Below the pieces are notes generated by a model that worked only from the letters and a program-made list of their open reading frames with translations, was not told the DNA's origin and did no database searches. From positions 1 through 58,728 of IMG/VR virus record IMGVR_UViG_3300036760_000561: 58,728 nucleotides of DNA, one strand, 5' to 3'. The translations under genes were made by a program, and so were the position numbers. Origin of the DNA: a virus. Its lineage: Duplodnaviria > Caudoviricetes. Below are positions 1-58,728 of the stretch, one piece after another. How positions within the stretch are numbered: the stretch's first letter is position 1; every line of letters begins with the position of its first letter.

Positions 1-190
1 GCCCCTCCGGTTCCTCCAATGGCAAGTAGGTGCCGCGCCCCTGCGAGGGCGTCCACCGACTCACGACCCACGGATTCTCAAAACGTCGGAGCGGCGGGCC
101 GGGGTTGTCGTCGGGCGTCCACGCGAGATCGTTGCCATCGTGCCGTTCGGCCTGCAGCGGCGGCGTCCACCAGAGTTGCGGCGCGGGCAG
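1..190. repeat. Terminal near-duplicate of 58539-58728
   Basis: First 127 bp identical to 58539-58665; 4 substitutions (128, 137, 164, 182) in the remaining 63 bp. Confidence 0.95.
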
Positions 191-1009
191 GGGGCCGGGG
201 AAGTCCTCATCCATCACCGGGACAGCGGGCGTCGGACGCTCGTCGTTGAATTGGAACGAAGCCGCCAGCGTCGTGGTCAGCAGCGAGGCAGCGGCAAAGA
301 CGCCTAGTGCCGCTTGGGCCATCGCCGGGACGACGCCACTCCACACATCAGTTTCGGAATCGTCGGGTGGGGTGAACACCAGCGTCCGGCTGATCTCGAA
401 CCACGGATTGAGGGCCGTGGTGCCCGTTTCGTTTTCCGCGAGGTCCGAGGCGTTGTCCGATCCAAACGACATGGTGCCCGTGACCGTCGTTCCGCCCGCC
501 GTGCTGACCTGCCCACCGACCTCGATCACCAGTCGGTCGCCGGACACGGTGGTGTACCCGGTGGTCAGGGTGTCGCCATCGGCCAGCGTCTTGCTCGTCA
601 GCGTCCCGTTAATCCACTCGGTCGTGTTCGGCCCCACATGACCCAAGGCCAACATCGTCGCCTGGAGCGTCGTGCCGTCTTGCGAATAAACTTTGACGCA
701 AATCGGCTGGCGATTGATGTTGTCGTTGACACCCGACTCATTGCAGCGGATGTAGCACTTGATGGTGTCGCTGGTGACGAACGCGATCCCGGCAGCGAGC
801 GGATCGGAAATGAACTGCACGGCCAGCGCCGAGTCACTGGCCGCCGCCGCCCCGTTCGCCCAGATCGTCGTCGAGGCGGCAGCGGAACCATCTTTATAGG
901 CGAGGAGCCGACGCCGGACCCCTTCGGTGGTGCGGGTCCACGCGGCAAATCCGGGGGTGAGCCCATCGGGCGCCCCCGCCGTACTGGTGAGATAGAGTCT
1001 TGTTGCCAT
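1..1009 (-). CDS. N-terminal part of a Pro/Asp-rich repeat protein (runs off the window start, continues at 58728-56878); putative virion accessory protein
   Basis: Hand translation from ATG 1009 (MATRLYLTSTAGAPDG...DEDFPGPLPAPQLWWTPP...) is open to position 1; missing from the ORF track because it has no stop. Confidence 0.8.
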   Translation of the reverse strand, partial: MATRLYLTSTAGAPDGLTPGFAAWTRTTEGVRRRLLAYKDGSAAASTTIWANGAAAASDSALAVQFISDPLAAGIAFVTSDTIKCYIRCNESGVNDNINRQPICVKVYSQDGTTLQATMLALGHVGPNTTEWINGTLTSKTLADGDTLTTGYTTVSGDRLVIEVGGQVSTAGGTTVTGTMSFGSDNASDLAENETGTTALNPWFEISRTLVFTPPDDSETDVWSGVVPAMAQAALGVFAAASLLTTTLAASFQFNDERPTPAVPVMDEDFPGPLPAPQLWWTPPLQAERHDGNDLAWTPDDNPGPPLRRFENPWVVSRWTPSQGRGTYLPLEEPEG

Positions 1010-4638: not shown

Positions 4639-4651
4639 ACGATGCACTCCT

Positions 4652-4978: not shown

Positions 4979-4979
4979 G

Positions 4980-5261: not shown

Positions 5262-5296
5262 ACGTCCCCCCCTGTGAGGCGGCTTCCGCCGCCAAG

Positions 5297-6932: not shown

Positions 6933-6954
6933 CGCATTCTCTCAGCGCGTTGCA

Positions 6955-7275: not shown

Positions 7276-7285
7276 AGGTCCGCCT

Positions 7286-8590: not shown

Positions 8591-9366
8591 GACAGGTACG
8601 CCTTGCGGCTGTAGTAGGTCGCGCTCACCGCGTTGGTGATCTTCACCATCGGTGCATCCCCCGGATCAAAGATCGGGAAGGTTTCCGTCGTGCCTAACGT
8701 CGCCATGATGTTGGTGCTGGTGACGTTATTCCAGCGCGTGATCGTCCATTGATCGAAGTCAATGTCCACATACTCCGCCGCAGTCCATGTCGTTGTCAGC
8801 GTCATGGTGTAGCGCGGGGTGCCCGCACGGTCGGCAATCACGATGGTACACGGGCTGGTGCCCGCGCCCACGAGCCGTAGAAAGCCACCTTGCGGAGCGG
8901 TGCCCACCGGAACCGCTGTGTAGGTGGCACCATCGCAAAGGATATGCGTCACCTCGGCCACCAGTGCATAGAAGTATGGGTCGGTGGATTCCAGTTGTAG
9001 GTCGAGCAGGGCCTCCCTGATCGCCAGCGACGCGGACCCGACGCCCTCTAGGCTGCTCGACGCCACGCGAGCATACACAAAACGGTTGGGGTCGTCGTTG
9101 ATGCGTACCTCGATCACGCCTTGCAGCGCCAGCATCAGCGCATCCAATTCCGTCTTGCGAGTCGCCACGCTGGTTGGCGTGAAATACAAACCAAAACGCA
9201 TGGTGCGACGCGGATACGTTGCCGGGATCGCCAGCCACGACCCAGCCCGACCGGAGATCGCCACGGCGTCCAGTTGAGCGCTCGACAGATCGCTCCACCC
9301 TGAAAGGCTGGTCGCTACACAACGAAAATCCACAATGTCGCGCCCGTTGATCCAGATGTCCGTCAT
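8587..9366 (-). CDS. Distal tail (Dit)-like protein
   Basis: Position; LESTDPYFY motif. Confidence 0.65.
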   Translation of the reverse strand: MTDIWINGRDIVDFRCVATSLSGWSDLSSAQLDAVAISGRAGSWLAIPATYPRRTMRFGLYFTPTSVATRKTELDALMLALQGVIEVRINDDPNRFVYARVASSSLEGVGSASLAIREALLDLQLESTDPYFYALVAEVTHILCDGATYTAVPVGTAPQGGFLRLVGAGTSPCTIVIADRAGTPRYTMTLTTTWTAAEYVDIDFDQWTITRWNNVTSTNIMATLGTTETFPIFDPGDAPMVKITNAVSATYYSRKAYLS

Positions 9367-12833: not shown

Positions 12834-15800
12834 TAGATCACCCGGACGGTGCCGCTCGCGCCGCCCTTGACGTTACTGCGCTTCGACATGGACGAGTCAA
12901 TCGCGGTCAGCACCGCTTGGCCGAGTTCGGTGGGGTTGTTCAGCACGTCGCCACTGACATTCACCACAATGGTGACACCTCCCGCGCTCCCCCCACCACC
13001 GTAGTTGAGGCCGCCCACATTGAGTGCGGGTACCATATCGCCGGAGCGAAGGCTACTGGTGTTGTAGCTGATTTCGCGAAGGTAGATGTTCATGCTGGCG
13101 AGGTAGCCCGCCGCTTCGGTCGTGGCAAACGCCCGTCGCTCGACCGAGGTGATGTTCTGATCCGAGGCGGCAGCGCTGTTCGCCGCCGCCGCCAGCGCGA
13201 TGTCGCTCTGACGTTTGATGGCTTCGTCATGCTGCAGAGCGTCGAGATCAGTGAGATACGCCAGCGAGCGCCCTGCGGCCACCGCGTCGGCGCGTTCGCG
13301 GCGTTGCGCAATGTTGAACGCCAGATCGTCGGCGGCAGCCTCTTGCCCGAGCGCCCGCAAGTGGCGCACATCCATGTCCTGCCGTGCAGCAGCTTCCTCT
13401 CTCGCCGCCTGCGCCTTATCATCGAGCGCCTTCTGTGCAATCTTCGCCGCATCGGCCACGCGCAGCGCAGCCACCGCCATGTCCTCCATTCCCACGGTCA
13501 GATCGAACATGGCGAGCGTGGCCTCGGAGGCGTGTTCCGCGACCATGCGCTCGCGCTCGCGCTGCTGTTCGAGGTGGCGCACCTTGTCCTCGAATGCCTG
13601 CCGTTCAGCAAGCGTGGAGAATTCGGTGATCTTGGTCGCGTCCTGCCGAAGCTGAAGGTCTGCCTGCGTGGCGACGTTGTACGACGCGATAGCCGCCGCC
13701 GTCGCAGCCTCCCGATCAATCACCTCTTGAGCCGCGTCCGCGATGTCTTTCAAGCCTGAAGCCACATCGGCAGCAATAACCTTGAACCACCGTTCGGCCA
13801 TCTCGGGTGTCATTTCCCCGGTGTCGCGACGGCGAGTAATGTCGTTGGACGCGCTCTCCCCGCGCAAGCGCACTTGCTCGGCGCTGTCCTTCGCCACGCG
13901 CACTTCGTTTTGCTTGAGGTCCATCTCCTCCGCCACCGCCTTGGCCGCGTCGTTGATTGCCTCGATGGCCTGTCGCTTCGCCAACGCTTCTTCCCGCAGG
14001 CCCGCCACGTATTGCTGTTGATCAAGCAATGCCTGATTCAGTGCCGGACCCATTTCCTTCACCATGTCGTCGTACTGACGTTGATTCGACAATTGCAACG
14101 CCATCGTGTCGGCGGCGGCATCACTCCCCTTGAGGCGCAGAGCTTCTACAGCAAAATCCTCCCCTGTCCGTTTTTCACGGAGCGCGATTTCCTTTTTGAT
14201 AGCTTCCACGTTTTCGTCGTAAGCTTTGCGTAACTTCAACAACTCAACCAGATAGTCTCTCGCCGCTCGACCAGACCCACCATACGAGATTTCCAGATTC
14301 TTCTGATTAATCGCCGCTTGAATTTGCTGCTGGCTCAATTTGGTTACATCGCCACCGCCAAGAATCTGTTTCCTAGATTTGGCATCCCCACCGACAGCTT
14401 CACTCGCGGCTTTTTGTAATTCTTGCGCTTGTTTTTGCAGTTGATTTATTCCGTCGCCCAACATACCACGCGGGTGCGCGATAGCGACGAAATCCGCCAA
14501 GGCGGTCTCCCATGACTTCTTCGCATCAGCCATTTTCTTGGCGGCTTCGCGGGCTTTGGCCCCGGCCCCCAAAAGGCCACCGACCATCCCCACAACACCA
14601 CCCACAATCGCTCCCACCGGGCCACCAGAGGCAAACCCCGCCGCTGCGCCAGTCAGTGCCCCAATCGCTGCGCCACCGGCTGCGTTCCCGCCAAACTGAG
14701 TCCCAAGTCCTGCCCCCATCAGGCCAGCACCTAATCCCGCTGCCGCATTGGCGAAACCAGCGCCCTTACCACTGAATCCATGACCAAACGACCAGCCTTT
14801 TCCACCGGGCATCGAGGGCATCGGAATACCGCCGCCAGTGCCAGTGCCGTCCCCCCCAAAATCCATCGCCCCCACTCCGGCGACCATAGACGACGCACCG
14901 GCTATTTGTCGTGCCCCACCTTTGATGCTCTCCGTCAACTGCAACAGGAGTTTGTCCAGCCCAAGCGCCTTAATGGTCATGGCCGCAGCGATCTGTGCCA
15001 TCATCGTCACAAACATCTTCTTGATCGCACTCGTAAACGATGCGAACCCGGTAATCCCGCTCGTAAAGATGGATTCAAAAGTTTTCCCAAAGGCGTCCTG
15101 CATCCCGCGTACAGCAGCAATAAACGGCTCGACCGCGAGGCGACGAGCTTCTTCGCCTTTCTTTTTTGCTTCCTCGGTCAAGTGATTGGCGTTGGCGGTC
15201 AATTGATTGCGTTCCGCAATGCGGGTAGCCGCCACTGACCCCAGCCCCTTTAATTCAACCTCTCGTACCGTATTGCCATAGACAACGCTTTCGTTGTACG
15301 CATCGAGGGCGGCCTGTCCACCGCGAGTCACGGCGTCGAGTTGTCCCCGTGCAACGAGAAGCGCATTGGAACTACTGAGGTCGAGGTCTTGGACCGCAAG
15401 GGTTTTTGTTGTAGCAACCCCGAGGTCGGCGGTTTCTTGTGCTTGGCGTGCAACGGCTTCAGCGTTCTTCGTGTTCCCGGCTGCCCGTTCAGCGTCAAGC
15501 GTATTCTGATAGACCAAACTGACGTTGTATGCTTCAAGCGCCAGCTTACCACCCGTCGTCGCCGCATTCAATTGGCCCTGTGCAACCACGTTCGCTTTTC
15601 GGACGCTCTCCGCCGCCTTGTAGTGGGTCGTCGCTAACGCAAGAGCCTCGTTGGCCTCGGATTCGCTCCGTCCTGCCTGCGTGGCGGCCTCCCCTTGGCG
15701 TAGCAGCCCTTCGGCTCGTTCTCGGGTTGCTCTCACCGTCGATTTCAAGGCTTCGTTAAAGGTCAGGGTGCGCTCAGTGCCCCCTACCAGTCCAGCAACG

Positions 15801-45311: not shown

Positions 45312-47132
45312 GTGGACTCCGACTCTCTTGCCGGGGCGATTAACTACTCCTCTATAGGATGGAGTGTAATCCCGGTAGCACGGGCTACTAAGCTCCCGCT
45401 GATTCAGTGGCAACGATACCAGAACAGGATCGCCACTGAGGAAGAAATTAGATATTGGTGGCTGCATAACCCGGACGCCAATGTGGGCATCGTGACCGGT
45501 TCGATATCCGGTCTCGTCGTCGTGGATGTGGATACCTCTGACAACGGAAGAGCGGAAGAAATCGCGAACCGCTTTCCCACTACTCTGGTATCCAGAACAG
45601 GATCGGGCGGGACTCACTTATTTTATCACCACCCTGATCCTTTTCAAACCAGATTCCCCAATCGAGTAAACAAGCAGTCCAAGACTGATATCCGTGGGGA
45701 CGGCGGGTTTGTGGTGGCTCCTCCTTCGATGCACTCCAATGGTTCTCTTTATTCGTGGGTTTTACACGACCTGTCTCGGGTTCCCACACTGCCCTTGACG
45801 GCACTACCCCTTATTTTTCCGGGGATGTCCAATCAAGCGGAGGGGGACAAGGACTGGATTCTAGAAGCGTTGCAAGGTGTTGGGGAGGGAGAGCGCAACA
45901 GCACAGCCGCCAGATTAGCGGGTTATTGGATTCACAAGGGCATTCCCGAGGACGTGATAATCGGGATGCTGTTGGATTGGAACATCAAGAACACGCCGCC
46001 GTTGCGTTCATCCGAAATCGAACGAACAGTGAGATCGGTGTGGGAAACGGCGTCCCGAGAAACAGATAGGAAATTCCAGGATAAACCGTCTACCAGTCTT
46101 AGAGTCAGAGAGCCGGAACCCTCCACGACGATGGAGGACCCTTTCTCATTGGTCCCATTTTCCGAATACATGGCTACCTTCGGGGGCCAGCCTATCAATT
46201 GGGTTATCGAAAAATGGATGCCCGACAAGACAATCATGCTGATGGTGGCTCCTCCCGGAGCATACAAGACGTGGATGCTGCTGGATCTGGCGATCAGTGT
46301 AGCCTCGGGAACCAAATTTCTCGGCCATTACCCGGTGCTGTCCAAGGGACCCGTCATCATCATCCAACAAGAGGACTTCCACGGCCAGATAGCGGAGCGA
46401 ATCGGGATCATTGTGGAATCGAGATTCGGCATGGTCTCCGGATACCGAAGTTCCGATGAGGATTTCGGGTTACAGAGCGCCCCAAATCTTCCGATCTATT
46501 TACACGCCGCTCGCCGGTTTAAGTTCTCCGATTCGGTGGTGTTGACGGCGTTGGAAAGTCACATTGCTGCCATTCGACCACGACTAGTGATTCTTGACCC
46601 ACTGTACTCAGCCGGTGAGACCGACGACTACATGGCCAAGACCGTAACTCAGATGTTCGCTTTCAAATCGATGCGGGACCGATACGGCTGTTCCTTCCTA
46701 ATGGCGCATCACACGAAAAAACACAACGATGCCGGGGGACAGGATCGGCAAGAAGCGTGGGGCTCGCAATTTCTTAATGCTTTCTTGGAGACCGGTTGGC
46801 AGATCAGGCCGGGGAAAAAAACGGAGGCGTCCACTATCAAGATTCGACGACATTTTAAGGTATCCTCCAACGTACGTGAGGAGACGATCAATTTCAACAT
46901 CAGCACAGAAGCTCCCTACAGTTATCGGGCGGATGTCACCAATGACGGGGTAGATTTACAACCGGAGGATTTGAAGGTAGAAGCCGCCTTAATGGAGGGG
47001 CCAACCACCCGTGCCGATCTGCAGAAAAAACTCCCCGCTCTCTCTGTAACTCAACTCAAAAAAACGTTGGAGAAACTAGTAGAGTTAGGCAAGGTCACCA
47101 GAGGAGTTGACTTCAAGTTTAAATTAGTCTAA
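45312..47132 (+). CDS. Prim-Pol/PriCT primase fused to RecA-like (AAA_25) helicase
   Basis: NVGIVTG...VVDVD, TGSGGTHLFY, DIRGDGGFVVAPPS, GERN, APPGAYKT, ILDP, AHHTKK. Confidence 0.88.
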   Translation: MDSDSLAGAINYSSIGWSVIPVARATKLPLIQWQRYQNRIATEEEIRYWWLHNPDANVGIVTGSISGLVVVDVDTSDNGRAEEIANRFPTTLVSRTGSGGTHLFYHHPDPFQTRFPNRVNKQSKTDIRGDGGFVVAPPSMHSNGSLYSWVLHDLSRVPTLPLTALPLIFPGMSNQAEGDKDWILEALQGVGEGERNSTAARLAGYWIHKGIPEDVIIGMLLDWNIKNTPPLRSSEIERTVRSVWETASRETDRKFQDKPSTSLRVREPEPSTTMEDPFSLVPFSEYMATFGGQPINWVIEKWMPDKTIMLMVAPPGAYKTWMLLDLAISVASGTKFLGHYPVLSKGPVIIIQQEDFHGQIAERIGIIVESRFGMVSGYRSSDEDFGLQSAPNLPIYLHAARRFKFSDSVVLTALESHIAAIRPRLVILDPLYSAGETDDYMAKTVTQMFAFKSMRDRYGCSFLMAHHTKKHNDAGGQDRQEAWGSQFLNAFLETGWQIRPGKKTEASTIKIRRHFKVSSNVREETINFNISTEAPYSYRADVTNDGVDLQPEDLKVEAALMEGPTTRADLQKKLPALSVTQLKKTLEKLVELGKVTRGVDFKFKLV

Positions 47133-47139
47133 TTGACAC

Positions 47140-47168
47140 TTGACAAATACGATCCCGAGTGTTTTTTT
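47140..47168 (+). promoter_or_regulatory. Putative promoter TTGACA-N14-TGn-TTTTTT
   Basis: Intergenic, heads the replication/Z operon. Confidence 0.65.
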
Positions 47169-47209
47169 TCGAGGGTAGGCAACCAACCTTTACACGGAAG
47201 GATCGTCAA

Positions 47210-47512
47210 ATGCCGGATATCGCTACCACCAAGACTCGCAAGCCACGCAAGGACAAGGGGATGAAGCGGAATGGAAAGATCGTCAAGATTCGAGGAGTCT
47301 GTCTCTTCTCCGGTTCGCCCACCAAGGGCAAGAAATCCCGATTCCTGCCCGGGAACGACGCCAAGCTCAAGAGCGTGTTGATCAAGGTCCACGGAGACAG
47401 CGCACCCATGGGAGCGATTCCTCGAACCGCTTTGGATGCCCTCAAGAGCCCCGGGGGAATTCTCGGTTTCAAGATCACGGATTCCGGCACCCTTCGTAAG
47501 GTCGGAGACTAG
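47210..47512 (+). CDS. Basic hypothetical protein
   Basis: SRFLPGNDAKLKSVL motif; RBS. Confidence 0.6.
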   Translation: MPDIATTKTRKPRKDKGMKRNGKIVKIRGVCLFSGSPTKGKKSRFLPGNDAKLKSVLIKVHGDSAPMGAIPRTALDALKSPGGILGFKITDSGTLRKVGD

Positions 47513-47516
47513 CCCG

Positions 47517-48671
47517 ATGCGACCGACTGGCCCGGCCCCCGTTGTTACGACCAACGACGGGAAGCCGTGGCTCAACATGTCTCAAATCTCCGAATGGACC
47601 AGATGCCGGTATCGGTACGATCTGACCACCATTCGGAGAATCCAGCCCCGGGCCATCAGCCGACCGCTGGACCTTGGCTCCGCCGTTCATGCCGGTATTG
47701 CCGCCTTATTGTCGGCCCCGGCTCTGCCCCTCGTTGGGCCGTATCGGGATGAGCACATTCGATCGGCTTTGGTCAAGTGGTACGAACGAGAACGAGAAGT
47801 TCGGTCCGGATTTCAAGGGGAGGAAGAGCAAGAGGCTCTGAATATCCGCAGCACAGCGGCCTTGATTGTGGGTCGCCAGTCTGGGTTGCTCAGCCCGGAC
47901 CGGTGGCAAGTAGTCAGGCTCCCGTATTCCAAAGCCTTGTATTCCGGGGCCAATGAGAACACGCCAGCGGGAGCCCCACTAGTTGAGCTGGGGATCTCGA
48001 AACGGTTCCCCAGCAAGCAACGGATGGGATGGGCGGGGATGCATGGGACTCCGGATGTCGTGCTGGAGGACCTGCGAGATGGGGGAGTCTGGCTCACCGA
48101 TTTCAAAGTACGTGGCACCTTCTCCCCGATTGAAGACGAAGAAACAAACATCCAGCATCCGATTTATCAGTACCTGCTGAACCACTACGGGGTGGAGGCG
48201 AACGGCCATCTGACTTGGCAGATTCGTAATGACATCCCACACCAACCCGCAATTAACAAAGACGGGAGTGTTAGCAGAGCCCGTATTGCAACGGACTGGC
48301 CGACATACCGTGATGCCGTTATCGCGGCGGGGCAGGATCCGATGGAGTACGTCGAAATGCAACAAAAATTGGCTGATGTTGAATTCACTCGGATCACGCG
48401 CACCTATCGCTCTCTCGATTCCGCCCGACGCATCTGGGACACCGTGATGACCCCGATTGCCAAGGCAATGCATCGGGAACGGAAATCCCCGGCACATCGA
48501 AGCCTGAACGCTTGGAACTGCAAAGGCTGTAGGGTCAAAGAGTTCTGTCTGGCGGAGTTGAAGGGGGAGGACACCGAATTCCTGTTGTCCACTTCATACG
48601 TGGACTTCAACAATCCACGCGAGTTCATACCCTTGACGGTCGAACAAATGCAATTCGACGAGGAAAACTGA
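47517..48671 (+). CDS. PD-(D/E)XK Cas4/RecB-like exonuclease
   Basis: C...GSAVH...PD...DFK...Q...Y...CKGC...C. Confidence 0.8.
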   Translation: MRPTGPAPVVTTNDGKPWLNMSQISEWTRCRYRYDLTTIRRIQPRAISRPLDLGSAVHAGIAALLSAPALPLVGPYRDEHIRSALVKWYEREREVRSGFQGEEEQEALNIRSTAALIVGRQSGLLSPDRWQVVRLPYSKALYSGANENTPAGAPLVELGISKRFPSKQRMGWAGMHGTPDVVLEDLRDGGVWLTDFKVRGTFSPIEDEETNIQHPIYQYLLNHYGVEANGHLTWQIRNDIPHQPAINKDGSVSRARIATDWPTYRDAVIAAGQDPMEYVEMQQKLADVEFTRITRTYRSLDSARRIWDTVMTPIAKAMHRERKSPAHRSLNAWNCKGCRVKEFCLAELKGEDTEFLLSTSYVDFNNPREFIPLTVEQMQFDEEN

Positions 48672-49468
48672 TGAAACCGAGCATCTATCGGGTGGCAGTA
48701 GAGGCCCCCACTTTCAACATGGCACTCTATGGAGACCCCGGAAGTGGGAAGACCACTCTGGCGTCAACAGCCCAGGATGTACCAGAGATGCAGAACGTCC
48801 TTTTTGCCAATATCGAGGGCGGGTTACTCTCGGTAGCGCACCGAGGCGATCTGCAAGCGCTAGACATTCACAGAACCGACGAGGTGGAAGAGCTGCTATT
48901 CATGCTGGCGCAGGGCTCTCTGAAGGACGTGAGGACAGTCGTATTGGACTCTGTGACCGAACTCCAAACACTCAATCTGGAGGAGATTACCGCTGCGGCG
49001 TTGCTCAAGGCCCGAGGCAAGGGCGACAAGCGTGAACGGGACGAGATTTGGCAAGACGATTACGGCAAGAGTACCGTACAGCTGAAGAGGTTGATTCGAG
49101 GATTCAAGGACCTCCCGGCGAATTTCATCGTTACGGCGCTCGCCAAGTACGTGTATCGAAAGAGCGACAGCAGCAGTGGCCCGGTTGAAGGGGCTGAACC
49201 CCAGATAGTGTTGCCTTCGTTGACACAGAAGCTCTGCGTTAGCATGATGGGCTACATGGACATGGTGTGGTTTACGTATTATGACGCCGACGATCAGAAA
49301 TTCAAGGCACTCACTCGCAATCAAGGCGCGTGGCGGGCCAAGACTCGGGGACCGAAATTCTCAGAGGCGATTGGTCCTCTGATGCTCAGTCCTAACCTGC
49401 CCGACATTTATCGCATCTTTGTAGAATCTGAGCGGTCCTCCCCCGCTCCGGTTGTTGTCACCACTTAA
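48671..49468 (+). CDS. Sak4-like AAA ATPase (recombinase)
   Basis: YGDPGSGKTT, VVLDSVT. Confidence 0.8.
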   Translation: MKPSIYRVAVEAPTFNMALYGDPGSGKTTLASTAQDVPEMQNVLFANIEGGLLSVAHRGDLQALDIHRTDEVEELLFMLAQGSLKDVRTVVLDSVTELQTLNLEEITAAALLKARGKGDKRERDEIWQDDYGKSTVQLKRLIRGFKDLPANFIVTALAKYVYRKSDSSSGPVEGAEPQIVLPSLTQKLCVSMMGYMDMVWFTYYDADDQKFKALTRNQGAWRAKTRGPKFSEAIGPLMLSPNLPDIYRIFVESERSSPAPVVVTT

Positions 49469-49494
49469 GGGGAGACTACTCCAAGGAGTTCCAG

Positions 49495-49968
49495 ATGACT
49501 GGACCCAAGCCGGATTTTGGTAGACCTGCTCCCTCCGATGGCGACGAGTTCTCCGCTGAGCTTCCGCCCAACGATCAGGACAGTAAGTATGCCCCCCCGG
49601 GGCAGTATCTTGCCAAAGTGGTGGATATCATCAAGAGCAGGGCCAAGAGCTCCGGCAATCCCATGTGGGTGGTCTCATTTGTGATTGTGGAAGGCGAATT
49701 CGCAGGACTCGACAAGGACGTGCATCTGGCGATCACACCAAACGCCATGTGGAAGGTCACTGAAACAATGATGGCTCTCGGTCTGGCCGACGCCTCGGGC
49801 GGCATCATCAATTTCAAGAAGACCGAAGTTCTCAATCGAGGAGCCCTCATCGTTCTTGATGACGACATGTACCGGGATCGAAAGACCGCCAAAGTCACCA
49901 AGGTACTCCCCCATCCTAAGGGGGCGGGCACTTTGATCACGGGCAGTGGGGGCAAACCCTCCTTCTGA
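49495..49968 (+). CDS. ssDNA-binding protein (DUF669-like)
   Basis: PPGQYLAKV...SSGNPM; follows the Sak4-like gene. Confidence 0.7.
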   Translation: MTGPKPDFGRPAPSDGDEFSAELPPNDQDSKYAPPGQYLAKVVDIIKSRAKSSGNPMWVVSFVIVEGEFAGLDKDVHLAITPNAMWKVTETMMALGLADASGGIINFKKTEVLNRGALIVLDDDMYRDRKTAKVTKVLPHPKGAGTLITGSGGKPSF

Positions 49969-49977
49969 GGCAACACC

Positions 49978-51726
49978 ATGCTTGTAACACGCGCAAAATT
50001 CGGGACCGCCCTAGAGGATTTAGGGCGGTTCCCCCGCCTCATTGTGGACACAGAGACCACAGGACTGAAAGTGTATCAACAGGACAGAGTGTGCGGTGTG
50101 GCGGTGTGGGGAGGGGAGGAGGAGGTTAGGCCGATGTACTTCCCCATTCGCCATGCAGAGGGGGAACATGAAGCGGAAAAGAACCTAACTCCGGACCAAT
50201 ACCGGAGTCTGATCGAAGCTTTGTCCGCCCCGGGAGTAATTCACACCGGGTGGAATTACAAATTCGATCTTGGGATGCTGCAGCGGGACGGGATGAAGGA
50301 ACCACATGCGGCGGAAGACGTGATGCTGGCAGCCCATTTGATGAATGAGAATGAGCCCAATTTCAAACTCAAAGAAACTGCCGCCCGCTACATTGACCCA
50401 CAGGCCGCAGCCGCCGAACGGGGACTGACAGAAATGTTGTCAGACCGAGGGATGACCAAGGGCGACATCTCACGTCTGCTGGCGGCTGAGGTGGAGCCCT
50501 ATGCCACACAGGATGTGGTGCTAACGGAGAGAATGCGGCAGGTTTACGTCACGGCTTTACGGGATTGGAAATTGCTCGATCTCTGGCAGGAAGTCAATGA
50601 GTACATGTTAGCGACGTATCGAATGGAACGTCACGGGTTAGCTCTTGACATCGATCTCATTCATGAGTACGTGAAAGAGGCCGCAGAGAAAGAGTCGGAC
50701 CTGTATAACAGGATTTGTGCCGCTGCCGGGTACTCAATCAATCCAAGAAGCTCCAAACAACTGCAAGCGTGGCTTGGTTTAGCCAGCACGGCTGAAGAAG
50801 TACTGGAAGAGATCGGGGAGGATCACCCCGAGGCGTTGCTGCTACGGGATTACCGAAAATGGGCGAAGGTGAGCAATACCTACTATCTCCCATGGTTGGA
50901 GAAATTGGGGGAGGACGGATTTCTTCATCCTAACTTTCTCCTCCACGGAACCATCTCGGGACGACCATCTTGCAACAGCCCGAATCTACAAGCGGTGCCG
51001 AGGAAGACTGAAATATACAAGGTAAAGGACGTGATCGTTGCTCGGCCCGGATACCGTCTGACGAACATGGACTACTCTCAAGCCGAGATTCGGCTGTTCG
51101 CCCATTACTCCGAGGATGCGATTTTAGCTGATATCTTTGAACGTGATGGGGACACCCATGGGGAGGTGGCTACGGCATTGGGCATTCCCAGGGATGCTGC
51201 CAAGAGGATCAACCTAGGGACGCAATACGGGTTAGGATCAGCGGGACTTGCTTCCAAACTCAAGATCCCGCTTTCTCTAGCCACGGAATACCTTGACCGG
51301 TACCACCGCGATCATCCGGGATCACGTCGTCTGTACTACCACATGCAGAGGAAGGCGGAGGATGTCAGATACATCCGCATGTGGACAGGACGGGTTAGAC
51401 GGTACAACTGTTCCAAGGCAGAACCCCATAAAGCTCTTTCCAATCTGATTCAGGGGGGAGTAGCTGAGGTTATGCGATACGCCATCACTTCCATTGACAG
51501 GATGGCGCGGGAGGGGCCTTTGACGGGAACTAGAATGCTGTTGCAGGTGCACGATTCTATTTTGTTCGAAACTCCAGAGGAGCGTACCGAAGAGTATCTC
51601 CCAATCATCCAAGGCATCATGCAAAATATCGGGGATTTCAGCGTTCCCCTCAGAGTGGATGTGATGACTGGAAATCGATGGGGAAAACTTGAACCATGGG
51701 GAGTTGTTCATGCCGAGACAGCATAG
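49978..51726 (+). CDS. Family A DNA polymerase with 3'-5' exonuclease, candidate DpoZ
   Basis: DTETTG, NYKFD, YATQD; motif A DYSQAEIR, motif B KRINLGTQYG, motif C VHDS. Confidence 0.92.
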   Translation: MLVTRAKFGTALEDLGRFPRLIVDTETTGLKVYQQDRVCGVAVWGGEEEVRPMYFPIRHAEGEHEAEKNLTPDQYRSLIEALSAPGVIHTGWNYKFDLGMLQRDGMKEPHAAEDVMLAAHLMNENEPNFKLKETAARYIDPQAAAAERGLTEMLSDRGMTKGDISRLLAAEVEPYATQDVVLTERMRQVYVTALRDWKLLDLWQEVNEYMLATYRMERHGLALDIDLIHEYVKEAAEKESDLYNRICAAAGYSINPRSSKQLQAWLGLASTAEEVLEEIGEDHPEALLLRDYRKWAKVSNTYYLPWLEKLGEDGFLHPNFLLHGTISGRPSCNSPNLQAVPRKTEIYKVKDVIVARPGYRLTNMDYSQAEIRLFAHYSEDAILADIFERDGDTHGEVATALGIPRDAAKRINLGTQYGLGSAGLASKLKIPLSLATEYLDRYHRDHPGSRRLYYHMQRKAEDVRYIRMWTGRVRRYNCSKAEPHKALSNLIQGGVAEVMRYAITSIDRMAREGPLTGTRMLLQVHDSILFETPEERTEEYLPIIQGIMQNIGDFSVPLRVDVMTGNRWGKLEPWGVVHAETA

Positions 51727-52798
51727 AGGAGACATTACAGCGGTTGTGGATGGGGCTTACGGGTCCTGCGGCAAGGGAGTCGTGGTTAACCATTTGGCCA
51801 AAAAATATGCAGTCCATGTCCGAGTCGGATCAGTTCAAGCGGGACACAGCCATTTCCATGCCGACACGGTATTCAAGCAGCAAGTGGTTCCAGTAGGATG
51901 GATTAACCCCAAAGCTCAACTGATAATCGGTCGTGGGGCCTTGGTCAGTTTCTCTCAACTGGTGAAGGAGGTCGAAGAAATTCTTCCTTATGATCCCTCA
52001 ATCCTAAAACGGCTCAAGATCGATTCTCGGGCCGGAGTTCTGGACGACCGGCACCACATGGAAGAAGGCGGGACAGGAGGGGACATGCACAAACGGATAG
52101 GGTCCACAGGCGAAGGAGTAGGAGCAGCCCGGATGGCTCGGATTCGTAGAGATTCCTCTTTCTTCAATCTGGCCTATCAATCGGCAGAGCTCTACGGAGG
52201 AGCTTTGTGGTCAGCTTCCGATTTGTTGATGGACAATGTGCACCATCTCATCCTCGGTGCTAGGGAAAGAGGAGAGAATACGCTGCTTGAGGGGGCACAG
52301 GGGGCTGGACTCAGTTTGATCCATGGGCCATGGCCTTATGTCACCAGTACCGACACCAACGCCTCACAGATGGCGGCGGATATCGGCCTTCCCCCGCGAT
52401 TCATAAACCGGACCGTTTTGGTGGTTAGAAGCCACCCGATAAGAGTAGCCGGGAATTCTGGCCCTCTCAAGAATGAAATCACATGGGCGGAGTTGTCCAA
52501 ACGACTAGGCAAAGAGGTTGAAGAGAAGACCACCGTTACCCGCAAGATCAGAAGGATAGGGGAGTGGGACGACGACCTTTTCATGGCGGCAGTTCGGATT
52601 AACGCTCCCACTTCTATCGCTCTCATGTTTGCCGACTACATTAACCCGGCTGACGAGGGAAAGACTCGATTTGGGGATCTGAGTGTCAAAACCAAGTCTT
52701 TCGTAAAATACCTAGAATCCATGTCCGGAGTCCCGGTTTCTCTCATCGGGACCGGGGGCCATGGCTGGAAAATCGTAGACCGGGGAATCAGACTATGA
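51710..52798 (+). CDS. purZ: PurZ/PurZ0-like 2-amino-deoxyadenylosuccinate synthetase
   Basis: PurA fold with GSCGKG (Ser for the PurA Asp), HPIRV, TTVTRKIRR, MFADY. Confidence 0.8.
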   Translation: MPRQHRGDITAVVDGAYGSCGKGVVVNHLAKKYAVHVRVGSVQAGHSHFHADTVFKQQVVPVGWINPKAQLIIGRGALVSFSQLVKEVEEILPYDPSILKRLKIDSRAGVLDDRHHMEEGGTGGDMHKRIGSTGEGVGAARMARIRRDSSFFNLAYQSAELYGGALWSASDLLMDNVHHLILGARERGENTLLEGAQGAGLSLIHGPWPYVTSTDTNASQMAADIGLPPRFINRTVLVVRSHPIRVAGNSGPLKNEITWAELSKRLGKEVEEKTTVTRKIRRIGEWDDDLFMAAVRINAPTSIALMFADYINPADEGKTRFGDLSVKTKSFVKYLESMSGVPVSLIGTGGHGWKIVDRGIRL

Positions 52799-53220
52799 TG
52801 GACAACGTGACACTGTATTGGACCGGCGAGGGGGAGAGACCAACCAAGTCCCATCCCGGGGATGCTGGATGGGACCTGTTCTCATTCGACACGTTTGCCG
52901 TAGGCCCCAAATCGTTGTCCGACATCAGAACCGGAGTATCTGTTGCTCTGCCCCACGGGTATTACGGCCATATTATGGGCAGAAGTTCCACTTTCAGGGT
53001 CCATCAATTGCAGGTCATCGAGGCCGTCATAGATTCAGGATATCGGGGAGAACTCTTCTTCCAAGTGTATAACCCGGGAGAACACACAGTCCACGTTGAC
53101 AAAGGACGCAGATTGGCTCAGCTGATTATTCTCCCGGTTCCCTCTGTGGAATGGTGCAGAGTACAAGACCTAACTTCTAGTTCGAGGGGGGACCGTGGCT
53201 TCGGAAGTTCCGGGAAATAG
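52795..53220 (+). CDS. dut: Trimeric dUTPase-fold protein
   Basis: AGWDL, GRSS, VIDSGYRGE, RLAQL, RGDRGFGSSG. Confidence 0.85.
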   Translation: MMDNVTLYWTGEGERPTKSHPGDAGWDLFSFDTFAVGPKSLSDIRTGVSVALPHGYYGHIMGRSSTFRVHQLQVIEAVIDSGYRGELFFQVYNPGEHTVHVDKGRRLAQLIILPVPSVEWCRVQDLTSSSRGDRGFGSSGK

Positions 53221-53521
53221 CGCTGCCAAGAATGACGGGGGCAAACTCAGATTTGATCTCATTCCGGTCTTACCGCTGGAAGAGTTGGTTTTCACCATCA
53301 CTCTAGGAGCCAACAAGTACGGGGATCGAGATTGGGAAAGAGGAATGCCCTACGGGAGAATGTTTGCCGCTATGTTGCGACACGCGTGGGCATGGTGGAA
53401 GGGGGAATCTCGGGATTTTGAAGACAGAAATCACCATCTGGCCGCTGTGGCGTTTTGTGCTCTGGCTCTCATGGAATTGGAACGTACTCATCCCGAGATG
53501 GACGACAGGCCAAAGTTATGA
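53195..53521 (+). CDS. dATP/dGTP diphosphohydrolase-domain protein
   Basis: KNDGGKLRFDLIP...GANKYG..DWERG...RH...HLA. Confidence 0.8.
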   Translation: MASEVPGNSAAKNDGGKLRFDLIPVLPLEELVFTITLGANKYGDRDWERGMPYGRMFAAMLRHAWAWWKGESRDFEDRNHHLAAVAFCALALMELERTHPEMDDRPKL

Positions 53522-54030
53522 GGATAGGGACGCGTTCTCTCCTCTTCGGCGCCCATCAATTCGTTCTTCATCCCTTGATGGTGGCAATTGCATGGAACAG
53601 ATTGTACGGTTTCCCGTGGGATCCCCGACTGTGGGTTTCTTTCTTTGTACACGATTGGGGCTATTGGAGATGCCCCAATATGGACGGACCCGAGGGGGAA
53701 CTTCATCCATTCCGAGGAGCCGCTATTGTCAAAAAGCTGTTCGGCACTCGATGGGGGCAATTCACTCTTCTACACTCCCGGACTACGGCGAAGATGCTGG
53801 GACAGCCGGTATCTGATCTTTGCGCGGCTGATAAACTGGCCGTGGCGCTGCTCCCGTGGTGGGTGTACGTCCCAATGGTAAGAGTTACTGGTGAAATCCG
53901 GGAGTACAAACGAGTCTCTAAACATGTCAAGCAGACCGGTTGGATAGATCAACAGATCAGCTGGGAATCAGACATCGAATGGTTCAGGGTTTTGCAGAAG
54001 GACCTTCTCAGACGGGATCGATCCCCATGA
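53518..54030 (+). CDS. HD-domain phosphohydrolase-like protein
   Basis: LHP...VHDWG...HP...LHS...ADKL. Confidence 0.6.
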   Translation: MRIGTRSLLFGAHQFVLHPLMVAIAWNRLYGFPWDPRLWVSFFVHDWGYWRCPNMDGPEGELHPFRGAAIVKKLFGTRWGQFTLLHSRTTAKMLGQPVSDLCAADKLAVALLPWWVYVPMVRVTGEIREYKRVSKHVKQTGWIDQQISWESDIEWFRVLQKDLLRRDRSP

Positions 54031-54323
54031 GCCCACTTGAAACTTCCATCACTTCGACTATCCTAAAACGCTTGAGAAATCGGGGAGTGGAGATAATCAA
54101 AGTCCACGTGACAGCATACATGAGAACCGGAGAGCCCGATCTTCTCGGTTGTCTTCCCCCGTCTGGACGCACCGTGGCATTGGAAGTTAAACAGCCCGGA
54201 AAGAAGGCCACCCCCGTTCAACAGATGAGATTGATGATGTGGGAAAAGGCGGGAGCCATAACTGGAACTGTCCACTCCGCAGACGAAGCTGAGATGCTGG
54301 TGTTTGGTGATTTACAAAACTGA
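54027..54323 (+). CDS. VRR-NUC nuclease
   Basis: GEPDL...LEVKQPG...TPVQ. Confidence 0.85.
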   Translation: MSPLETSITSTILKRLRNRGVEIIKVHVTAYMRTGEPDLLGCLPPSGRTVALEVKQPGKKATPVQQMRLMMWEKAGAITGTVHSADEAEMLVFGDLQN

Positions 54324-55707
54324 ACCATGGCTGCATCAGCAACAAGCCTTTGACTATGCTTTTCCCCGGAATCACACCATGTTGGCTATGGCTCCGAGGA
54401 CCGGGAAATCAAAGGTCACCATCGATTTGATAATGAATTGGGGGGCCAAGCGAATCCTGATTCTCTGTCCCCGATTTGTTGCTTCAGTGTGGGTTGACCA
54501 ATTCAATCGACATTGGCACCCCGAGGCGGGGGAAGTAACGGTCATCCTGTTGTCTGCTCAGCAAGGAAAATCCTTGCCGATCTCAAAACGGATACAACTG
54601 GCCGAAGAGTCGCTGTCTCATTGTAGTGCAGACGTTGTGATGGTGTTTGTTGTAAATTACGACATCGCTTGGAGGCCCATTTTTACTTCATGGGCGTTAA
54701 AACAACATTGGGACGTGGTGGGATGTGATGAGTCTCATCGAATCAAGGCCCCCGGGGGAAAGTCGTCAAGAGCTATTTTTAATATCGGCAGGACCGCCAT
54801 TCATCGGTTATGCCTGACGGGCACTCCAATGGCCCATTCTCCTTTGGATATCTATGGGCAGTACCGGTTTATGGATTCCACGGTGTTCGGAACCAATTTT
54901 TCTCGATTTAGGTCCCGATACGCCGTTATGGGGGGATTCATGATGCGACAAGTGATCGGGTATCAAAATGAGGGAGAACTGAATTCGAAGTTTTATCAAC
55001 ACTCTTTCCGTGTGCGATCTGAGGATGTGCTAGATATTCCGGACAATCTCCCCCCTGACATTCGAGAAACCGCACTGGAACCGTCATCCGCCAAAATTTA
55101 CCGCGATTTAAAAAAGAGCTTTTCTGCTGGAGTTCTCAATGGGACTGTGACAGTAGCCAACGCCTTAACTAAGATCGTCAGGTTCCAGCAGATCACCAGT
55201 GGATTCATCAAGACCGATGACGGGATAGAGCAAAATCTGGGAGAAGAGAAGATCACGATGTTTCATGACAGCATGAAAGACCTAGAGGAACAGGAGCCAG
55301 TAGTAGTGTATGCTCGATTTACCCGAGATCTTGACCGGTTGGCTGGGCTCCTAAGTACGCTGGGGGAGTCTTTTTCTCGTTGCTACGATGGCGTGGACGA
55401 AGTGAAAGAATGGGAGTCCGGTGGAAGTAGATTCCTTCTTGCCCAGATCAAATCCGCCGCAGAGGGAAGGGATTTTGTAAGATCGAGAGTGGTCATCTAT
55501 TACAGTTTGACCCATTCCTTAACCGACTACATTCAGAGTAGAGAACGGGTACGAGGGCCGGATCAGAAAAGAAGAGTTCTGTACATCCATCTCATGGTGG
55601 AGAATTCCATCGATTGGAAAATACTCCGATCTCTGGAGTCCCATGAAGAAGTCATTGAAGGTGTGTTGCGTCAGACCAAAGAGGAGGAATCAGAGACTCC
55701 ATCCTAA
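54304..55707 (+). CDS. SNF2-type superfamily II helicase
   Basis: PRTGKS, DESHRIK, LTGTP, QSRERV. Confidence 0.88.
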   Translation: MVIYKTEPWLHQQQAFDYAFPRNHTMLAMAPRTGKSKVTIDLIMNWGAKRILILCPRFVASVWVDQFNRHWHPEAGEVTVILLSAQQGKSLPISKRIQLAEESLSHCSADVVMVFVVNYDIAWRPIFTSWALKQHWDVVGCDESHRIKAPGGKSSRAIFNIGRTAIHRLCLTGTPMAHSPLDIYGQYRFMDSTVFGTNFSRFRSRYAVMGGFMMRQVIGYQNEGELNSKFYQHSFRVRSEDVLDIPDNLPPDIRETALEPSSAKIYRDLKKSFSAGVLNGTVTVANALTKIVRFQQITSGFIKTDDGIEQNLGEEKITMFHDSMKDLEEQEPVVVYARFTRDLDRLAGLLSTLGESFSRCYDGVDEVKEWESGGSRFLLAQIKSAAEGRDFVRSRVVIYYSLTHSLTDYIQSRERVRGPDQKRRVLYIHLMVENSIDWKILRSLESHEEVIEGVLRQTKEEESETPS

Positions 55708-56877: not shown

Positions 56878-58728
56878 TCAAGGTTTTAAGGCCCCGGTTT
56901 CACCGAAGGGGGGTCGCGTAACCACGTTTCCATTCAGCGCCGGTATGATGTTTGGTTGCCCCAACATCGCCGGGAGCGTCACCGGGATCACCCCCAACGC
57001 CGAGACGGTATTGAGAGGAGAGAGGAGGCTCGGCACTGTGACCACAAATCCCAATAGGGCGTCGTAGCGAGGGAAAGCTATCAGCCCCTCGTCACACACG
57101 GCCTGTGGAGGGGGTGTCGGCCACAGACGCGGGGACGGCCAGACGGTTCCGTCGTGTTCCTCAACCGTGGACAGCGAGCTGACAGCATTGCCATCGTCCC
57201 ACCACAACATTGTGACGTTCGACGGCGACACGCTCGCCGGGGAAAGCCACCCTTCCTCGTCCACCGCGAGTGACGGAACAAAATCTTCATCTGGCGGGGG
57301 CAGCCACAGTGACTGGGCAGCCCAGATTGGACGGTGGAGTACGCTCGCGTCGTCCTCAACAACGCTAACGATGATTGGGTCATCCCATGGCGTGAACAGC
57401 GTATTTTGGGCACTTGCCGTTGGGACAACGGGCCATCCCGTCGCGTCGTCGTCTACCGCAACATTGAGATGCAGGTTGCCGAGGTCGTTCCCCTCATCCA
57501 GCCGCGCCTGCACCGAAGGCACCGGCCAGAGGGCCGGGGTCGGAGTAACCAGTAGATAATCTTCGTCGGTGCCAATCGTCGGGGTCGGAGCTACCCACGT
57601 TTCCTCAATCGCCACGGCCTGACATGGCGGCACCGGCCAGAGGTCGGGGCGAGGGCGGGGTCCGGGGAAGTCCTCGTCGCGCAGCCATGATAGATCGTTT
57701 CCAGCATCTATGGTGGCCTGTAGCGGCGGCGTCCACGACAACTGCGGTTGCGGCTGCGGGCCGGACGGCTCCTCATCAATCGCGGGATTGAGATGGAGGT
57801 TCCCCATGTCCATGCCGCTGTCGGCCATCGCCTGAACGGGCGGCACCAGACAGAGCGCGGGTGCGGGCAGGACCAGGAGATAGTCCTCATCCGTCCCGAT
57901 GAACGTCGGTGGGGTAACCCAATCCTCGTCAATCGCCCGCGCTTGGGGCGGGGGCACCGTCCAGAGTTCGGGCCGGGGCAACGGCCCCGCGAAATCCTCA
58001 TCAACGCTCGGGAAGAGGTGCAGGTTGCCAAGCGCCATCCCGTCGTCGGTGAGCGCCTGCGGCGGGGGCACCGTCCAGAGCAACGGCGCGGGCAGAACAA
58101 TCGGATGGTCCTCGTCGGTCCCAATGGACAGTGGGGGCGCGACCCAATTCTCCTCTAGCGCCGTCGCCTGCAGCGGGGGAACCGACCACAAGACGGGAGC
58201 GGGCAGCGGCCCCGTAAAGTCTTCATCTACCGTTGGAAGCGCGTGAAGGTTTCCGAGGCTGTTGCCGTCATCCACCATCGCCTGTGGCGGGGGCACCGGC
58301 CAGAGCAACGGCGCGGCGACCGGGCCGGGGAAGTCCTCGTCAACGGTCGGGAATAGGTGCAGGTTGCCGAGGTCATTCCCATCGTCCGTCGCCGCCTGCC
58401 CCGAACGCGCCTCCGGCCACACCAGCCCCACCGGGGGCGCATCGTCCTCCACCGTCGCCGTGACCGGAGGCGCGTAGTCGCCCTCCTCGAAGATCGGCAG
58501 CCGTCCCCATGGAATCGGCGGCGGCACCACCGGCTGCAGCCCCTCCGGTTCCTCCAATGGCAAGTAGGTGCCGCGCCCCTGCGAGGGCGTCCACCGACTC
58601 ACGACCCACGGATTCTCAAAACGTCGGAGCGGCGGGCCGGGGTTGTCGTCGGGCGTCCACGCGAGGTCGTTGCCGTCGTGCCGTTCGGCCTGCAGCGGCG
58701 GTGTCCACCAGAGTTGCGGGGCGGGCAG
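56878..58728 (-). CDS. C-terminal part of the Pro/Asp-rich repeat protein
   Basis: Frame open to the window end (LPAPQLWWTPP...); 33-38 aa DED repeats. Confidence 0.85.
   Translation of the reverse strand: MPAPQLWWTPPLQAERHDGNDLAWTPDDNPGPPLRRFENPWVVSRWTPSQGRGTYLPLEEPEGLQPVVPPPIPWGRLPIFEEGDYAPPVTATVEDDAPPVGLVWPEARSGQAATDDGNDLGNLHLFPTVDEDFPGPVAAPLLWPVPPPQAMVDDGNSLGNLHALPTVDEDFTGPLPAPVLWSVPPLQATALEENWVAPPLSIGTDEDHPIVLPAPLLWTVPPPQALTDDGMALGNLHLFPSVDEDFAGPLPRPELWTVPPPQARAIDEDWVTPPTFIGTDEDYLLVLPAPALCLVPPVQAMADSGMDMGNLHLNPAIDEEPSGPQPQPQLSWTPPLQATIDAGNDLSWLRDEDFPGPRPRPDLWPVPPCQAVAIEETWVAPTPTIGTDEDYLLVTPTPALWPVPSVQARLDEGNDLGNLHLNVAVDDDATGWPVVPTASAQNTLFTPWDDPIIVSVVEDDASVLHRPIWAAQSLWLPPPDEDFVPSLAVDEEGWLSPASVSPSNVTMLWWDDGNAVSSLSTVEEHDGTVWPSPRLWPTPPPQAVCDEGLIAFPRYDALLGFVVTVPSLLSPLNTVSALGVIPVTLPAMLGQPNIIPALNGNVVTRPPFGETGALKP
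58539..58728. repeat. Terminal near-duplicate of 1-190
   Basis: 186 of 190 positions identical. Confidence 0.95.

Follow-up and report, generated by a model that had tools for sequence, protein, structure and literature searches.

A candidate PurZ0-type gene module for 2-aminoadenine DNA in an uncultured tailed phage

We analyzed the IMG/VR virus record IMGVR_UViG_3300036760_000561 (Duplodnaviria; Caudoviricetes), whose 58,728 nucleotides we refer to as the window (it is the whole record), and focused on five overlapping genes at positions 49978 to 54030. We consider it likely, judging from sequence, that these genes form a module for nucleotide-pool control in a phage whose DNA contains 2-aminoadenine (Z) in the place of adenine, in the version known from phages with a PurZ0 synthetase. 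A Z-DNA pathway is the best reading because the defining residues of PurZ are present in the synthetase and because the two enzymes flanking it have close homologues that hydrolyze dATP and dGTP. The module is real and coherent; instead of a new pathway, it is a variant of the PurZ0-type system already known. What sets it apart is a synthetase from a separate clade with a mixed phosphate-donor site, a polymerase of a third PolA lineage without the marks of the Z-selective polymerase DpoZ, and an extra gene of the HD superfamily. A first-pass annotation had proposed a complete Z pathway here; the PurZ-type residues, a dUTPase of the DutZ clade and a flanking DUF5664 gene bear this out, whereas the DpoZ, the DatZ-type fifth gene and the unfamiliar accessory set that it included do not stand. 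The five genes themselves are present as it described them, all on the plus strand and translationally coupled:

49978..51726, plus strand: family A DNA polymerase with 3'-5' exonuclease, 582 amino acids (PF00476, E 2.5e-65; PF01612, E 4.1e-09)
51710..52798, plus strand: PurZ-family synthetase, 362 amino acids from the ATG at 51710, with an alternative TTG start at 51689 (PF00709, E 4.7e-47; phrog_1211, E 6e-65)
52795..53220, plus strand: DutZ-like enzyme with the trimeric dUTPase fold, 141 amino acids (PF00692, E 5.4e-27)
53195..53521, plus strand: stand-alone DUF5664 / dGTP_diPhyd_N protein, 108 amino acids (PF18909, E 3.4e-28; phrog_801, E 9.9e-38)
53518..54030, plus strand: fifth open reading frame (ORF), probably a divergent HD-superfamily protein, 170 amino acids from the ATG at 53518, with an alternative TTG start at 53455 (no family match)

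The synthetase and dUTPase genes share an ATGA stop/start overlap (52795-52798), as do the DUF5664 gene and the fifth gene (53518-53521), and the fifth gene and the VRR-NUC nuclease gene that follows it (54027-54030). The overlap is 17 nucleotides between PolA and the synthetase, and 26 nucleotides between the dUTPase and DUF5664.

The synthetase and its flanking enzymes

The window synthetase was aligned with three PurZ (from phiVC8, S-2L and an Acinetobacter phage), four PurZ0 (Ghobes, Hiyaa, Nubia and IndiRoo) and four bacterial PurA sequences. At the position of the catalytic Asp13 of PurA it has S19, within GSCGKG; Ser is found there in 7/7 PurZ and PurZ0 references and Asp in all four PurA. 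T274 falls in the column of phiVC8 T262 and S-2L T273, where bacterial PurA has Gly, and P243 and W259 match PurZ-specific residues, unlike PurA. K279 stands in place of PurA R303, which is Arg in the bacterial sequences, and an insertion of about 40 residues typical of bacterial PurA is absent. The functional meaning of these positions is documented in passages of three reports: Ser replaces Asp in 100% of phage PurZ (n=147; PMC12884076); S14, F12 and T262 accommodate the 2-amino group, and mutation of S14 to D abolishes PurZ selectivity (bioRxiv 10.1101/2025.10.22.683976); and R303 of PurA touches the ribose O2', from which the PurZ equivalents are drawn away (PMC8342488).

The same signature extends to the relatives of the protein. 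A search of 1.84 billion representative proteins gave 507 clusters at E <= 1e-30, and from 139 of the top 150 (those of >=300 amino acids) together with 14 phage references we built an alignment of 153 phage and metagenome rows, in which 149 rows have Ser in the Asp13 column, two have Gly, one has Asn and one has a gap. The adenylosuccinate synthetase fold is indicated by matches to 27 PDB sequences of PurA or PurZ, and phrog_1211, the PHROG match, is annotated as '2-aminooxy adenylosuccinate synthetase'. GenBank phage homologues reach at most 36% identity. In a careful IQ-TREE analysis of 53 rows, 49 Ser-type rows were split from the four bacterial PurA with support 100/100, PurA being represented in our synthetase trees by these four bacterial sequences. 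On its residues and its place in the tree, the window synthetase is a member of the PurZ family (PurZ plus PurZ0), and the purZ-like label given at first pass was thus apt. The reaction predicted from its sequence is the condensation of dGMP and Asp to N6-succino-2-amino-2'-deoxyadenylate.

A clade of 27 Ser-type PurZ homologues (P0174, P0183, P0203, P0217, P0256 and others) differs in length, with 355-746 amino acids and all but two members at >=505. The two members that we checked carry one or two N-terminal P-loop kinase-like domains (Pfam AAA_33 / AAA_18 / AAA_17) fused to the synthetase, and proteins of this clade may be nucleotide kinase-PurZ fusions.

The dUTPase-fold protein groups with those of Z phages. 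In a careful tree of 21 rows, the window Dut, five relatives and five Duts of PurZ-bearing phages, among them Ghobes DutZ, form a clade of 11 rows, split with support 99/98 from seven Duts of non-Z phages and three cellular Duts. The best GenBank phage matches to the window Dut (85-108 bits, tblastn) are mainly Duts of PurZ-bearing actinophages, and Olihed was confirmed as carrying a PurA homologue. Arthrobacter globiformis phages are also among the best matches (88-96 bits), and the one that we checked, Beagle, is without a PurA/PurZ homologue; canonical phage Duts score at most 67 bits. As described in PMC12884076, in the part that covers these enzymes, Ghobes DutZ and the Dut domain of Wayne, the enzymes from which this activity is known, hydrolyze dATP, dGTP and dUTP to monophosphates, and by analysis of its relatives the window Dut is predicted to do the same.

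With the DUF5664 domain of Arthrobacter phage Nubia gp50, which directly follows PurZ0 in that phage, the DUF5664 protein shares 54% identity (93 bits), and with the DUF550-fused Acinetobacter protein 28% (38 bits); the assignment to a type rests on these pairwise comparisons rather than on a tree. Against PDB sequences the protein gave no match. The stand-alone DUF5664 of Wayne hydrolyzes dATP and dGTP to monophosphates, according to the same part of PMC12884076, and we predict by comparison that the window protein is a dATP/dGTP pyrophosphohydrolase like the stand-alone DUF5664-1 type. Because the Dut falls in the DutZ clade and the DUF5664 most resembles the form in Arthrobacter phages, the accessory set is the one that a 2026 paper in Nucleic Acids Research described for PurZ0 phages. 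The passage of that report (PMC12884076) on gene content finds dutZ in 98/98 of the PurZ0 genomes examined, and describes PurZ phages as having instead DatZ with MazZ or DUF550. The idea that the accessory genes form an unfamiliar set was therefore mistaken: the Dut is in the clade of Ghobes DutZ (99/98) and the DUF5664 is 54% identical to the form of a PurZ0 Arthrobacter phage.

We propose the following course. The DutZ-like dUTPase and DUF5664 would strip pyrophosphate from dATP and dGTP, as their characterized homologues suggest, which would remove the competitor dATP and supply dGMP. The Ser-type PurA homologue, going by its residues, would condense dGMP with aspartate to N6-succino-2-amino-2'-deoxyadenylate, probably with GTP. 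Host PurB (none is encoded in the record) and host kinases would finish dZTP along the established pathway. The adjacent family A polymerase would then copy the genome; it would be non-selective, and Z would be incorporated as dATP would be scarce. Exclusion of adenine probably rests on dATP depletion, as in S-2L, because the polymerase lacks the DpoZ hallmark.

Donor site, polymerase and absent genes

Several observations weigh against a Z-DNA module of PurZ0 type. The base composition of virion DNA is not readable from an assembly. For Dut and DUF5664, the substrate ranges are carried over from homologues that are 45-54% identical. Among solved structures, the closest in sequence to the synthetase is an Asp-type PurA, the archaeal short PurA of Pyrococcus horikoshii (PDB 5k7x and 2d7u; 158.9 bits over residues 18-365), with lower scores for phiVC8 PurZ (127 bits), 7vf6 (114) and S-2L PurZ (79). 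This archaeal enzyme resembles the window protein in its short architecture, without the bacterial insertion, but unlike it has kept the catalytic Asp (GDEGKG versus GSCGKG). The remaining points concern the phosphate donor and the subtype of the synthetase, the polymerase, and genes that are absent from the record.

At the donor site the window has M306-F307-A308-D309-Y310. D309 occupies the column of PurA D333, where 4/4 PurZ0 references also have Asp and the three PurZ references N or Q, and the GNSG loop likewise matches PurZ0. In the part of PMC8342488 that describes the S-2L structure, the corresponding Q308 hydrogen-bonds the adenine 6-amino group. GTP is a probable donor because the guanine-binding Asp is kept, the role of this Asp in the choice of GTP being deduced from the structural descriptions of PurA and S-2L. 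Nonetheless, the call is uncertain because F307 and Y310 match the adenine-stacking residues of the ATP-using phiVC8 PurZ, and we predict GTP use from the sequence with moderate confidence only. The literature itself is not consistent here: the ATP/GTP preferences given for PurZ0 and PurZ in section 24 of PMC12884076 reverse those of its own introduction, in the text of it that bears on this.

The placement of the synthetase between the two subtypes is similarly ambiguous. With FastTree (157 rows), the window protein falls in a clade of 50 rows (support 96), sister to a 14-row clade with the PurZ0 references (95). With IQ-TREE (53 rows), the PurZ references together with that of Bacillus phage 140 form one clade (98/97) and the PurZ0 references another (100/99), and the window protein lies in a separate metagenomic clade of 18 rows (84/95), outside the named PurZ0 clade, the deep order being left unresolved. 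In approximately unbiased (AU) tests, a grouping of the window clade with PurZ0 was not rejected (p 0.375), and a grouping with PurZ was not rejected either (p 0.184). The phylogeny with PurA, PurZ and PurZ0 that had been suggested as a check consequently sets the protein apart from bacterial PurA (100/100) but does not separate PurZ0 from PurZ. Membership in the ATP-using PurZ subgroup is not supported: the window has Asp rather than N/Q in the S-2L Q308 column and the PurZ reference clade (98/97) excludes it, although the AU test gave no formal rejection (p 0.184).

The polymerase was taken at first pass for a DpoZ, a role that it does not fit. In a careful tree of 20 rows, the window PolA and seven relatives form their own clade (100/100), and DpoZ-1 (Nubia, IndiRoo) and DpoZ-2 (phiVC8, Acinetobacter) are located elsewhere, each with support 100/100. 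By BLAST, the window PolA matches Cellulosimicrobium phage DS1 (203 bits), Arthrobacter phage Casserole (178 bits) and Listeria phage LP-010 (170 bits), then three typical cellular PolA (137-154 bits), the DpoZ-2 references (130 and 80 bits), the DpoZ-1 references (86 and 73 bits) and a fourth, divergent PolA from a metagenome-assembled genome (MAG; 74 bits). Those three nearest GenBank phages have no PurA/PurZ homologue. Phe at position B4 of motif B is given, in a passage of PMC10201439, as the one substitution common to both DpoZ clusters; we found Phe in 4/4 DpoZ references, and Tyr in the window and in 8/8 relatives as well as in 3/3 non-Z phage and 4/4 cellular PolAs. Motif A is the canonical DYSQAE. 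The identity of the window PolA as DpoZ was therefore rejected, on its position outside both DpoZ clades and its Tyr instead of Phe at B4.

The record is labelled linear and 72% complete by IMG/VR. Positions 1-190 recur at 58539-58728 with four mismatches, and the minus-strand ORF 1009..2, which runs off position 2, continues in frame in the minus-strand ORF 58728..56878, giving a junction-spanning, repeat-rich protein of about 890 amino acids (DEDFxGPxP..LWxVPPxQA units). Despite the 72% estimate, the record is probably a whole genome of about 58.5 kb that is either circularly closed or terminally redundant, and the absences are therefore more meaningful. Six-frame searches of the record found no DatZ, NDT/DmtZ, MazG (MazZ) or PurB; DUF550 (PF04447) was also not found in six frames, a weak negative, as control genomes gave no match either. 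The lack of DatZ, MazZ, DUF550 and NDT, joined to a polymerase without DpoZ features, is a further point against, in that it leaves the completeness of A exclusion uncertain.

Polymerase and absences could also point to partial substitution, in which dZTP is made, but a canonical-looking polymerase and a pool controlled only by pyrophosphatases leave a genome of mixed A and Z. A PolA outside both DpoZ clades, with DYSQAE in motif A and Tyr at B4, is what this alternative would have, as is the absence of a DatZ-type dATP triphosphohydrolase. We consider it unlikely, given that S-2L is fully substituted without a selective polymerase, DpoZ being dispensable there for complete replacement of A by Z (both from the part of PMC10201439 on this phage), that two types of enzyme predicted to degrade dATP are present in the window, and that PurZ0 phages relying on DutZ, not DatZ, are treated as Z-DNA phages in the relevant passages of PMC12884076.

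The fifth gene

The last gene of the cluster had been labelled an HD protein and likened to DatZ. The first label holds in part, through the positions of the HD motif and the HD proteins that make up nearly all of the top structural matches; it is nevertheless the weakest of the five labels, with structural Z scores of 5.8 or less and no Pfam, PHROG or PDB sequence match. Among PDB sequences the ORF gave only a chance-level match to ETS1 (E 0.25). In public data its family numbers at least 1219 homologues (E <= 0.001), and the best 120 of those listed are 50-68% identical; among the matches listed, none has a Pfam domain and all are called hypothetical, and a few members lie on long bacterial contigs. 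In an alignment of 32 sequences an H..HD..D pattern is conserved, the invariant residues being H13, H18, H45-D46, D56, H63, H86, D105-K106, E126 and E129. The AlphaFold model is all-helical (pLDDT, the predicted local distance difference test, 88.7). An exhaustive structural search ranked Cas3-HD, HD-GYP, YhaM, Mesh1, YedJ, PgpH and related HD proteins on top at Z scores of only 4-5.8, and Foldseek against the PDB gave no match at E <= 1e-3. A family profile matched the HD oxygenase TmpB across the HD motif (E 0.022), weak PF01966 matches occur in 5/32 family members (E >= 0.046), and an HD cluster of the Atlas scores 0.92. The gene probably encodes a divergent HD-superfamily hydrolase, and its family is a candidate new family of the superfamily.

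Identity with DatZ was rejected: comparison by hhalign of the 32-sequence family with the DatZ of S-2L and phiVC8 gave a probability of 0.3%, Pfam gave no YfbR-like or HD_3 match, and PF12917 was absent from the six frames of the record. The family is a widespread phage accessory gene that is not linked to PurZ. Its neighbours vary widely, and clustering of them revealed no constant partner. In its best 80 IMG/VR loci, DUF5664 lies nearby in 2 and PolA in 4, and a PurZ/PurA or Dut homologue is found within 5 kb in 0/80. Five GenBank phage records of 41,774 bases each match at the same identity and score; in the podovirus that we examined, a gene annotated 'DNA adenine methylase' lies about 0.5 kb downstream of the homologue, and the region shown around it has no annotated synthetase.

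The protein might still be a functional analogue of DatZ that removes dATP, as it is probably an HD-superfamily protein joined to the nucleotide module by an ATGA overlap, and as in one relative of the window (L018) PurZ, DUF5664, the fifth gene and VRR-NUC follow each other in that order in a locus without Dut. We find this rather improbable, in view of the hhalign and Pfam results, of the lack of PurZ/PurA or Dut around the best loci of the family amid such variable neighbours, and of the podovirus that carries the gene with an annotated adenine methylase nearby and no annotated synthetase in the region shown. The DatZ-type function ascribed to the fifth gene is, on the same evidence, not supported.

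Related loci, known Z systems and host

Synthetases 49-58% identical to that of the window are encoded in 14 IMG/VR loci, with PolA directly upstream in 13/14 and a dUTPase directly downstream in 10/14; a dUTPase also follows the synthetase in 4/4 MAG contigs, which are labelled Paludibacter, a Bacteroidetes bacterium, Psychracetigena and Collinsella. The PolA-synthetase-Dut arrangement, kept in 10/14 of these loci and in 4/4 MAG contigs, is not due to chance. Each of these four MAGs also has its own separate Asp-type PurA. A reading of the cluster as ordinary auxiliary metabolism, with a PurA acting on IMP, a housekeeping dUTPase and normal ATGC DNA, would suit the archaeal PurA as best PDB sequence match and the five dUTPase motifs, which look canonical when the translation is read, but is very improbable given the Ser for the catalytic Asp13, the Thr for the PurA Gly at the 2-amino pocket and the Lys for R303, the clustering of the Dut with DutZ apart from 10 ordinary Duts, and the separate PurA in 4/4 MAGs.

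Some of the related loci add PurZ0-type accessories, namely DUF5664, an NDT-like gene (PF05014, E 1e-11) and a PurB-like lyase. Further nucleotide genes are seen in four of them (L005:8514-9321, L010:4769-5564, L029:7562-9734 and L013:5145-10490): a DUF1599 protein overlaps the NDT-like protein, a 214-amino-acid DUF1599-containing protein precedes the PurB-like lyase (PF00206, E 2.4e-27), and L013 has a fusion of uracil-DNA glycosylase with PolA (Pfam) and an ORF that resembles ribonucleotide reductase when its translation is read. By eye, motif IV of amino-methyltransferases is present in PurZ-bearing relatives as DPPW, NPPF and SPPY (L005:10005-10490, L014:5864-6463 and L010:3552-4748); no credible gene of the window has it. 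If these ORFs are N6-adenine methyltransferases, their role in an adenine-free genome would need explaining; methylation of Z is one possibility, action on host DNA another.

The module in the window resembles PurZ0-type systems in its Ser-type synthetase with guanine-binding Asp and GNSG loop, in its DutZ-clade Dut and stand-alone DUF5664 (most like the Arthrobacter-phage type), in having PolA upstream and Dut downstream of the synthetase, and in lacking DatZ and MazZ. It differs from them in that the synthetase is only 30-36% identical and belongs to a separate metagenomic clade, the PolA is not DpoZ-1 (73-86 bits, another clade, Tyr not Phe in motif B), NDT/DmtZ is missing and an HD-family gene is added. 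The known examples of these systems infect Actinomycetota. Clusters of the phiVC8 and Acinetobacter SH-Ab 15497 type, which consist of PurZ, DatZ, MazZ or DUF5664-DUF550, and DpoZ-2, share with the window the Ser and Thr at the dGMP pocket, the F and Y flanking the base-binding position and a family A polymerase beside purZ. They have N/Q at the adenine-binding position, where the window has Asp, and the window differs further in lacking DatZ, MazZ and DUF550, in its unfused DUF5664 and in a PolA outside DpoZ-2. Cyanophage S-2L (PurZ, MazZ, DatZ and a non-selective PrimPol) is like the window in that A is likely excluded through the dNTP pool and not by a Z-selective polymerase, and in its PrimPol gene, which in the window is part of the same operon; unlike the window, it relies on an HD-family DatZ and a MazG-fold MazZ rather than on Dut-fold and DUF5664 proteins, and the window also encodes PolA. 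Relatives of this lineage may be present already in the published PurZ and DpoZ trees and among the two new DpoZ sequences from the bioRxiv preprint.

The plus strand from 45312 to 55707 is a single tightly packed operon, and the gene order of its upstream part, from PrimPol to DUF669, is kept in related loci. Its other genes, assigned by Pfam in the upstream part and by Pfam/PHROG in the downstream part, are:

45312-47132, plus strand: PrimPol-AAA_25 helicase (upstream part)
47436-48671, plus strand: PD-(D/E)XK nuclease (upstream part)
48671-49468, plus strand: AAA_24 ATPase (upstream part)
49495-49968, plus strand: DUF669 protein, similar to single-stranded DNA-binding proteins (upstream part)
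54027-54323, plus strand: VRR-NUC nuclease (downstream part)
54304-55707, plus strand: SNF2-type helicase (downstream part)

Among named sequences, the head and tail genes lack close relatives. The first 14 kb (1-14000), with the tail and fibre genes, have a G+C content of 62-66%, against mostly 49-61% over 14001-58728, except for 61-63% at 32-36 kb; ORFs of 1155 and 1420 amino acids in the first 14 kb have no PHROG match, and the step at about 14 kb may mean that the tail module is of mosaic origin.

As for the host, a probably diderm bacterium had been proposed, for which we found no basis. The record has no tRNAs that we could detect and no significant spanin, the sole match being O_Spanin_T7 at E 0.0099, below the cut-off, from an ORF at 3958-4707 on the minus strand with a lipoprotein signal (LMAAC) recognized by eye; a CHAP/NlpC-P60-like lysin candidate, also recognized by eye, lies at 5297-5761 on the minus strand. 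These lysin and lipoprotein candidates do not decide the envelope type. The sole relative on a chromosomal contig is in the Collinsella MAG, a monoderm lineage. Within 3 kb of the end of this contig (119 kb; L030 / G003:C1) lie a Dut and part of a PurZ-like gene (47% identity over residues 95-337), and the contig is taken as chromosomal because the cellular PolA lies on it at about 58 kb. The locus looks like a prophage from this phage group, or a remnant of one, within a genome of the monoderm Actinomycetota.

Z-DNA phages represent a natural altered genetic alphabet and are a source of enzymes for restriction-resistant DNA. To date, PurZ0-type systems have been characterized from actinophages, where a Wayne-like DpoZ accompanies them; the window and its relatives have the same DutZ/DUF5664 toolkit with a distinct synthetase clade and an ordinary-looking polymerase. 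Because the synthetase has both the guanine-binding Asp and the aromatic residues seen in ATP-using PurZ, it is a useful test case for the donor switch in PurZ evolution. The lineage is large, because its synthetase falls in a clade of 50 rows (FastTree) that are representatives of clusters at 50% identity. We tentatively raise the possibility, less likely than the Z-DNA reading itself, that this large uncultured lineage relies for its Z-DNA on a third family A polymerase, recruited independently and lacking the DpoZ hallmarks. If so, exclusion of adenine in a phage replicating by PolA would rest wholly on pool control by DutZ and DUF5664, reinforced perhaps, in the phage studied here, by an unannotated family of HD hydrolases with at least 1219 members. 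Should the virion DNA be fully substituted with Z, a selective polymerase would be dispensable in PolA phages too, and Z would extend over a wider range of hosts and lineages.

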